Source: Escherichia coli | GTDB lineage: Bacteria > Pseudomonadota > Gammaproteobacteria > Enterobacterales > Enterobacteriaceae | Strand: one strand, 5' to 3' | Length of the DNA: 64,000 bases | Assembly (NCBI RefSeq): GCF_003334765.1 | Contig: NZ_QOWT01000016.1 | Shown: positions 39,994 to 40,081 of the stretch, piece after piece | Layout: each line of letters opens with the position of its first letter | Numbering within the stretch: position 1 is the stretch's first letter | The notes under the pieces: generated by a model | Databases searched by the model: none | What the model was told of the DNA's origin: nothing | The model's input: the letters and a program-made list of their open reading frames with translations, nothing else | Position numbers and translations under genes: made by a program

Positions 39994-39994
39994 T

Positions 39995-40050
39995 CCCGAA
40001 CTGACGGTTAATTCGGGCATTCCCCTCTACCCTTCGGGCTGAGGGGAATG
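39995..40050. terminator. tandem/nested hairpins between convergent yaeH and cdaR (putative bidirectional terminator)
   Basis: cccgaa(N11)ttcggg followed by the 10-bp inverted repeat cattcccctc(N13)gaggggaatg, whose loop contains cccttcggg. Confidence 0.6.
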
Positions 40051-40081
40051 AGCCAGCGCCGCCTCAACCTTAACGCATAAC

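Follow-up and report, generated by a model that had tools for sequence, protein, structure and literature searches.

The 88-bp spacer between the convergent genes yaeH and cdaR of Escherichia coli carries a strong hairpin directly past which the steady-state yaeH transcript ends, and the best explanation for this spacer in K-12-type E. coli is that it represents the 3' UTR of yaeH. We consider it likely that the yaeH mRNA is terminated by Rho and that the strong hairpin (hairpin 2), a decayed copy of the Box C repeat, acts as its protective 3' stem-loop.

Two hairpins fill the spacer between yaeH and cdaR

The spacer occupies positions 39994-40081 of the window, i.e., the whole 64-kb stretch of E. 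coli DNA that was analyzed, and comprises everything between the two stop codons (yaeH TAA, 39991-39993; cdaR TAG, 40082-40084 on the - strand). In the yaeH–cdaR region the window is identical to E. coli K-12 MG1655, and no feature is annotated within the 88 bp in the K-12 RefSeq record. The two genes and the two hairpins are located as follows:

39607-39993, + strand: yaeH coding sequence (DUF3461 protein), from the open reading frame list and the RefSeq annotation of the identical K-12 sequence
40082-41239, - strand: cdaR coding sequence, convergent with yaeH, from the open reading frame list and the K-12 annotation (182,463-183,620)
39995-40017, both strands: hairpin 1, formed by CCCGAA (39995-40000) and TTCGGG (40012-40017) around an 11-nt loop, from an inverted-repeat search and RNA folding
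40018-40050, both strands: hairpin 2, probable decayed Box C / PIT / TMECO element and putative 3'-terminal stem-loop of the yaeH mRNA, from inverted repeats, folding and HMM matches of orthologues

The arms of hairpin 2, CATTCCCCTC (40018-40027) and GAGGGGAATG (40041-40050), form a perfect 10-bp stem with 13 nt between them, and within these 13 nt CCC (40030-40032) and GGG (40036-40038) form an inner stem around a TTC loop. Hairpin 2 begins directly after hairpin 1 (40017 to 40018). An earlier note on this DNA had described a perfect 10-bp inverted repeat, an inner hairpin and a preceding CCCGAA / TTCGGG repeat in an unusually structured spacer, and all of these elements were found. The structured spacer is real and non-random, as confirmed by the folding z-scores of a 106-nt region (-2.1 on the + and -2.8 on the - strand) and by the arm pattern of hairpin 2, which occurs once in the 64-kb window with up to three mismatches permitted and in 0 of 100 dinucleotide shuffles. 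Both hairpins are predicted on both RNA strands; when folded alone, hairpin 2 is strong (-21.8 and -22.4 kcal/mol on the + and - strand, respectively), while only -6.8 and -8.6 kcal/mol are obtained for the weak hairpin 1.

Three other candidates were rejected for this region. Rfam covariance models gave chance-level matches only to positions 39500-40600 (E = 3.4-6.5, far below the gathering scores), which argues against a known structured RNA family, and a role as promoter region was dismissed as the promoter scan returned no matches. A small open reading frame of 40 amino acids (40027-40149, - strand) that shares sequence with both the hairpin and the end of cdaR was taken as a chance occurrence.

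The yaeH transcript ends past hairpin 2 and appears to be terminated by Rho

Published transcript ends were placed on the window by the conversion K-12 position = 223,702 - window position, which was verified on both stop codons. The relevant features on the yaeH strand are:

40053 (K-12 183,649(-)), + strand: steady-state RNA 3' end of yaeH, from Term-seq (Adams et al., 2021, eLife, Supplementary file 1)
40119 (K-12 183,583(-)), + strand: peak of a Rho termination region (Adams et al., 2021, Supplementary file 2)
40054-40153, + strand: C-rich, G-poor tract (38 C, 13 G), candidate rut region, located antisense to the cdaR end

Term-seq 3' ends had been named as a check in the earlier note, and a strong one was indeed present at 183,649(-). 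This end is listed three times in the Term-seq file, with one tab per growth condition, and the read scores in the two entries displayed (70,972 and 131,285) are comparable to that of the dapD terminator. It lies 3 nt beyond the point at which base pairing ends in hairpin 2, a single U is found among the last 8 nt, and the end was classed as "antisense cdaR" by Adams et al. (2021) solely since it is located more than 50 bp from yaeH.

At the Rho region, 56 reads upstream and 13 reads downstream were reported for untreated cells, compared with 99 and 116 reads in the presence of bicyclomycin, so that the downstream/upstream ratio is 0.23 without and 1.17 with the inhibitor (Rho score 5.05, p = 1.9e-7, calculated over 800-nt windows in one experiment of one published dataset). 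Since bicyclomycin raises this ratio, yaeH termination appears to be Rho-dependent. The Rho peak lies 66 nt from the 3' end and, given this distance and the 800-nt windows, some intrinsic or collision-assisted termination may still occur at the hairpin. The 100 nt past the 3' end have a C:G ratio of 2.9, and the ratio over 80 nt falls into the 99.9th percentile of all 80-nt windows on the + strand of the 64 kb. The TERMITe supplements hold no entry for the yaeH–cdaR locus, and a full-text literature search on yaeH returned nearly exclusively unrelated acronyms.

Based on these data, we propose that polymerase coming from yaeH would run through both hairpins, whereupon Rho would load onto the untranslated C-rich RNA just past hairpin 2 (40054-40153) and stop transcription within antisense cdaR, with a release site that we infer to lie around 40119. 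The tail would subsequently be trimmed by 3'-to-5' exonucleases up to the block formed by hairpin 2, which would leave the stable end at 40053.

The earlier note had instead regarded the spacer as a likely bidirectional terminator, i.e., as hairpins that stop polymerase arriving from yaeH and from cdaR without any factor, possibly aided by head-on collisions. A spacer of convergent genes that is filled by two hairpins and the sharp yaeH-strand 3' end directly past hairpin 2 are in line with such a function, and the link to a transcript end is borne out. However, hairpin 2 is not followed by a U tract on either strand (the + strand runs on as AGCCAGCGCC), a U tract is likewise absent after hairpin 1 on the yaeH strand, and the read drop across the site is abolished by bicyclomycin. 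Moreover, PIT / Box C elements were without terminator activity in assays cited in earlier work. Factor-free termination by the two hairpins in both directions is hence improbable; the cdaR strand is treated below.

A candidate terminator on the cdaR strand

A polymerase coming from cdaR would first transcribe hairpin 2, then the adjoining hairpin 1 and finally a U-rich tract:

39985-39994, - strand: U-rich tract AUUAUUUACG after hairpin 1, overlapping the end of yaeH, tail of a candidate intrinsic terminator of cdaR

The sole terminator-like match in the spacer lies on this strand and consists of hairpin 1, here with 8 pairs and a 7-nt loop, followed by ATTATTTACG; three such matches in the region compared with 1.1 expected are weak evidence. 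Hairpin 1 and AUUAUUU may be considered a possible, modest intrinsic terminator for cdaR, as judged from the sequence, and the proposed bidirectional terminator finds partial support at most. This reading is weakened by the weak stem, by the poor pairing of hairpin 1 among relatives, by polymorphisms that affect its closing pair (see below) and by the Term-seq tables of Adams et al. (2021), in which no 3' end is listed for the cdaR strand, plausibly because cdaR is poorly expressed in the media used.

Hairpin 2 is probably a relic of the Box C repeat

Later names of the Box C repeat are PIT element and TMECO (Holder et al., 2015, NAR, PMC4666352). Its published consensus consists of three blocks, CCCTCNCCC-N3-6-GGGNGAGGG-N3-GGGNGAGGG, and none of the 23 TMECO copies listed for MG1655 is located at yaeH/cdaR (PMC4666352). 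A scan of the window with this consensus identified only 59071-59104 (+ strand) and 59123-59155 (- strand) and nothing at 40018-40050. The former two are intact Box C / TMECO copies in inverted orientation to each other, which together span 59071-59155 (K-12 164,547-164,631) between the long - strand open reading frames 56438-58987 and 59168-61642; the + strand copy is of type A and corresponds to TMECO 2, and the - strand copy is of type B and corresponds to TMECO 1.

Of the three blocks, the K-12 element at yaeH retains CCCTCTACC from block 1 (8/9), no more than GGG from block 2 and TGAGGGG from block 3. Compared with Box C it has lost 12 nt, including most of block 2, and the other 88-bp forms likewise show a 12-nt gap. 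An HMM was built from the 23 published MG1655 TMECOs and the yaeH loci were searched with nhmmer. The orthologous spacer element was matched in MOD1-EC7003 (L018, E = 5.8e-5), E. whittamii (L011, E = 1.2e-3), E1V33 (L012, E = 0.075) and one further locus (L005, E = 0.076), whereas the K-12 copy remained unmatched up to E = 100. The MOD1-EC7003 and E. whittamii elements agree with the TMECO consensus at 27 of 30 positions with a single 6-nt gap, and the 5' flank CAGTCCCCTC is common to the orthologous Escherichia copies and to bona fide Box C copies. The resulting decay series reads:

MOD1-EC7003 (L018): CTCCTCTCCCCTTCGGGGAGAGGGTGAGGGG
E. whittamii (L011): CCCCTCTCCCCTTCGGGAAGAGGGTGAGGGG
E1V33 (L012): CCCCTCTTCCCTTCGGGGTGAGGGG
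K-12: CCCCTCTACCCTTCGGGCTGAGGGG

The nested palindrome would thus result from deletions that removed most of block 2, so that CCCCTC of block 1 pairs with GAGGGG of the block 3 remnant, while CCC and GGG persist as the inner stem. The orthologous intermediates suggest that hairpin 2 descends from a Box C / PIT / TMECO element. We do not claim direct Box C membership for the K-12 copy, which is not matched by the HMM, and since it fails the consensus that defines the family, we refer to it as a relic rather than a member.

Two side observations concern the Box C sequence. The bulge A of hairpin 2 at position 40029 (CTCTACCC) is replaced by C in three of the five other sampled E. coli sequences with the 88-bp spacer (L089, L090 [O157:H7] and L092), and this C yields CCCTCTCCCC, the Box C block-1 sequence; the remaining two (L006 and L091) retain A as in K-12. 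In Kosakonia, Phytobacter and related loci (L073, L077, L078, L082, L084 and L085 at 2386-2409), the Box C HMM gives additional matches (E = 1.6e-4 to 0.09) that lie within the spacer at the opposite side of yaeH, roughly 100 bp upstream of the gene.

The spacer is polymorphic within E. coli and hypervariable among Enterobacteriaceae

A survey of 5,426 complete E. coli genomes yielded the following forms of the yaeH–cdaR spacer:

Allele A: 88 bp, 3,566 of 5,426 genomes
Allele B: 52-53 bp, unrelated to allele A, 1,784 of 5,426 genomes
Neither A nor B at full coverage: about 75 of 5,426 genomes, of which the one examined (L088) carries a 114-bp spacer designated "allele C"

A search for other copies of the motif had been suggested in the earlier note. 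BLAST placed the 88-bp spacer at a single position in each of the 3,566 genomes that carry it, in a search that is blind to copies sharing just the two 10-nt arms, and the exact motif is accordingly single-copy. The earlier note had held a unique motif and readthrough without termination against its own proposal, and the motif is indeed single-copy and apparently read through; yet the element seems to be a decayed member of a multicopy family. Three of the 3,566 allele-A matches are on records labelled as plasmids, which may be F-prime-type plasmids with this segment.

Allele B is carried, for example, by Nissle 1917, ST131 and S88 (B2-type). On the yaeH strand it forms a classic terminator, GCCGGGU-loop-ACCCGGC followed by UGUAAUUUUGU, and it aligns with E. 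albertii as well as with a REP-like unit that Citrobacter carries at the same position, which suggests that allele B is probably the older state. Allele A is common to E. whittamii and other Escherichia lineages. The polymorphism at yaeH–cdaR fits the instability of TMECO loci that was described by Holder et al. (2015, PMC4666352).

Two further spacers were seen besides alleles A and B. Allele C (L088 401-514, E. coli FCI1, 114 bp) resembles the allele-B hairpin (AGCCGGGTAAAG ... CCCGGCA) with an unrelated insert of about 60 bp in its loop. At L009 2885-2950, SCPM-O-B-8794, a strain labelled E. coli that is a separate GTDB species representative, carries a spacer that resembles allele B and contains about 10 additional nt past the yaeH stop codon. 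This type of spacer does not occur as a separate allele among the complete E. coli genomes, and since its identity to any of them is only 79%, SCPM-O-B-8794 is unlikely to be E. coli sensu stricto.

In yaeH loci taken from 80 enterobacterial species, the spacer is hypervariable with lengths of 31 to 195 bp. Its palindromic fillings differ by lineage and include plain terminators, REP-like units and CCCTCTCCC-loop-GGGAGAGGG-TTA-GGGTGAGGG elements, the last of which are the Box C repeat. An intact TMECO is present in the yaeH–cdaR spacer of seven other enterobacterial species.

The core of the hairpin 2 stem is retained in allele-A variants

Among the six distinct allele-A sequences of Escherichia, the 7-bp core of hairpin 2 is paired in all six. 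One pair varies, being C-G in four sequences, U-G in one and U-A in one; with six sequences the covariation is thin, and the observed count of pairs changed on both sides is reached in 79 of 500 shuffles. The stem comprises 7-8 bp in other Escherichia and 10 bp in E. coli, with the three outer pairs specific to E. coli. Hairpin 1 is less well preserved, with 78% of cells paired over the six Escherichia variants. Substitutions among the sampled E. coli variants affect hairpin 1, the bulge of hairpin 2 and the tail, and the 10-bp arms are invariant; the polymorphisms in hairpin 1 break its closing pair.

These patterns bear on a second alternative, namely that hairpin 2 is neutral debris, a decaying Box C copy without a selected role, past which the 3' end is incidental to a stem that happens to block exonucleases. 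Such an origin would agree with the 12 nt lost relative to Box C, the hypervariable spacer of the Enterobacteriaceae, the known instability of TMECO loci and the unrelated spacer that at least 1,784 of the 5,426 E. coli genomes carry without apparent harm. Against it, all allele-A variants retain the stem core and one pair shows a compensatory series, the stem is longer in E. coli than in other Escherichia, and the arms remained invariant where hairpin 1 and the bulge varied. In addition, the replacing allele brings its own stem-loop, which suggests that a 3' hairpin is required at this position. We consider neutral debris unlikely on these grounds. Any stable hairpin blocks exonucleases, and the function of hairpin 2 may therefore be incidental.

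Lastly, a DNA-level element is highly improbable, whether it is the protein-binding palindrome suggested by the earlier note or an intrastrand triplex (H-DNA) with an effect on replication or recombination, such as has been put forward for intact TMECOs: the perfect 10-bp DNA palindrome, the polymorphic locus and the ability of intact TMECOs to form triplexes in vitro and to mark variable loci would be in its favor, but the second purine block is largely missing from the K-12 copy, which departs from the three-block triplex consensus and is not expected from its sequence to form a triplex, published work detected no triplex in vivo even for intact copies, and we found neither a known binding protein nor evidence for one.

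Comparison with known transcript ends and repeats

The preferred reading of a Rho-terminated yaeH mRNA with a protective hairpin places yaeH close to a class of transcripts described by Dar and Sorek (2018, NAR, PMC6061677). These Rho-dependent transcripts end right after stable stem-loops that lack a U tract, with rut sites just downstream; the ends are made by PNPase or RNase II, which trim the RNA to the protective stem-loop, and part of the set is linked to REP elements (PMC6061677). Likewise, yaeH has a precise 3' end after a stem of about -22 kcal/mol without a U tract, an enrichment of C over G downstream and bicyclomycin-sensitive readthrough. In contrast to this class, the yaeH hairpin appears to be derived from Box C, and trimming at yaeH is a step that we infer.

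Hairpin 2 also shares features with the Box C / PIT / TMECO family, as it is intergenic, consists of a C-rich block, a loop and a G-rich block, and is located at a strain-variable locus. Unlike Box C, the K-12 copy is 12 nt shorter, deviates from the consensus, is not matched by the HMM and is not among the 23 published copies, and unlike intact Box C it would be unable to form the three-block triplex. By analogy, hairpin 2 may be compared with the REP / BIME 3' stabilisers, which are also interspersed palindromic repeats in 3' UTRs with an exonuclease-blocking hairpin, and REP elements are associated with Rho-dependent ends (Dar and Sorek, 2018, PMC6061677). However, hairpin 2 has no sequence similarity to REP and comes from another family of repeats. 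At the yaeH–cdaR site, it is the alternative E. coli allele that is REP-like. With canonical intrinsic terminators such as those of allele B and of the neighbouring degP and dapD, hairpin 2 has in common a GC-rich stem-loop and a 3' end a few nt past the stem, but it differs from them in the missing U tract and in the Rho-dependent readthrough. The yaeH hairpin is thus a fresh instance of already known kinds of elements.

Box C hairpins at other transcript ends and implications

To our knowledge, no function has been assigned to Box C / PIT / TMECO elements since the 1990s, and apart from Holder et al. (2015), the literature that was searched yielded nothing that connects them with RNA 3' ends. 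In a non-systematic overlay of Box C copies on the Term-seq ends, ends without a U tract were located 2-4 nt past Box C hairpins at K-12 847,200(-), 3,781,065(+), 3,959,467(-) and 4,231,270(-), and a further end, 624,567(-), was located 10 nt past such a hairpin. In this one Term-seq dataset, ends after Box C hairpins were found with the repeat in both orientations. PIT elements had shown no terminator activity in previous work, in which protection was not assayed; the lack of activity is consistent with a role in protection and not in termination. It is conceivable, albeit a tentative generalization, that Box C repeats resemble REP elements at the RNA level and in general provide 3' hairpins that block exonucleases and thereby define where Rho-terminated transcripts have their stable ends. 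If this is true, the copy at yaeH shows that the hairpin alone is retained and not the triplex-forming third block.

By itself, the present finding is routine in that an unannotated structured spacer of K-12 is explained as the 3' UTR hairpin of yaeH. It corrects the label of a strong Term-seq peak from "antisense cdaR" to the 3' end of yaeH and provides a clean example of Box C supplying transcript-end hairpins. If the proposed mechanism holds, termination of yaeH would differ between strains, with Rho and a protective hairpin in K-12-type strains and an intrinsic terminator in B2-type strains. This would amount to a natural polymorphism in which about 66% of the complete E. coli genomes have a yaeH 3' end of the Rho-dependent type and about 33% a classic intrinsic terminator, and alleles A and B would offer a ready-made comparison of the two modes of termination, and of their effects on antisense transcription into cdaR, with the surrounding context unchanged.
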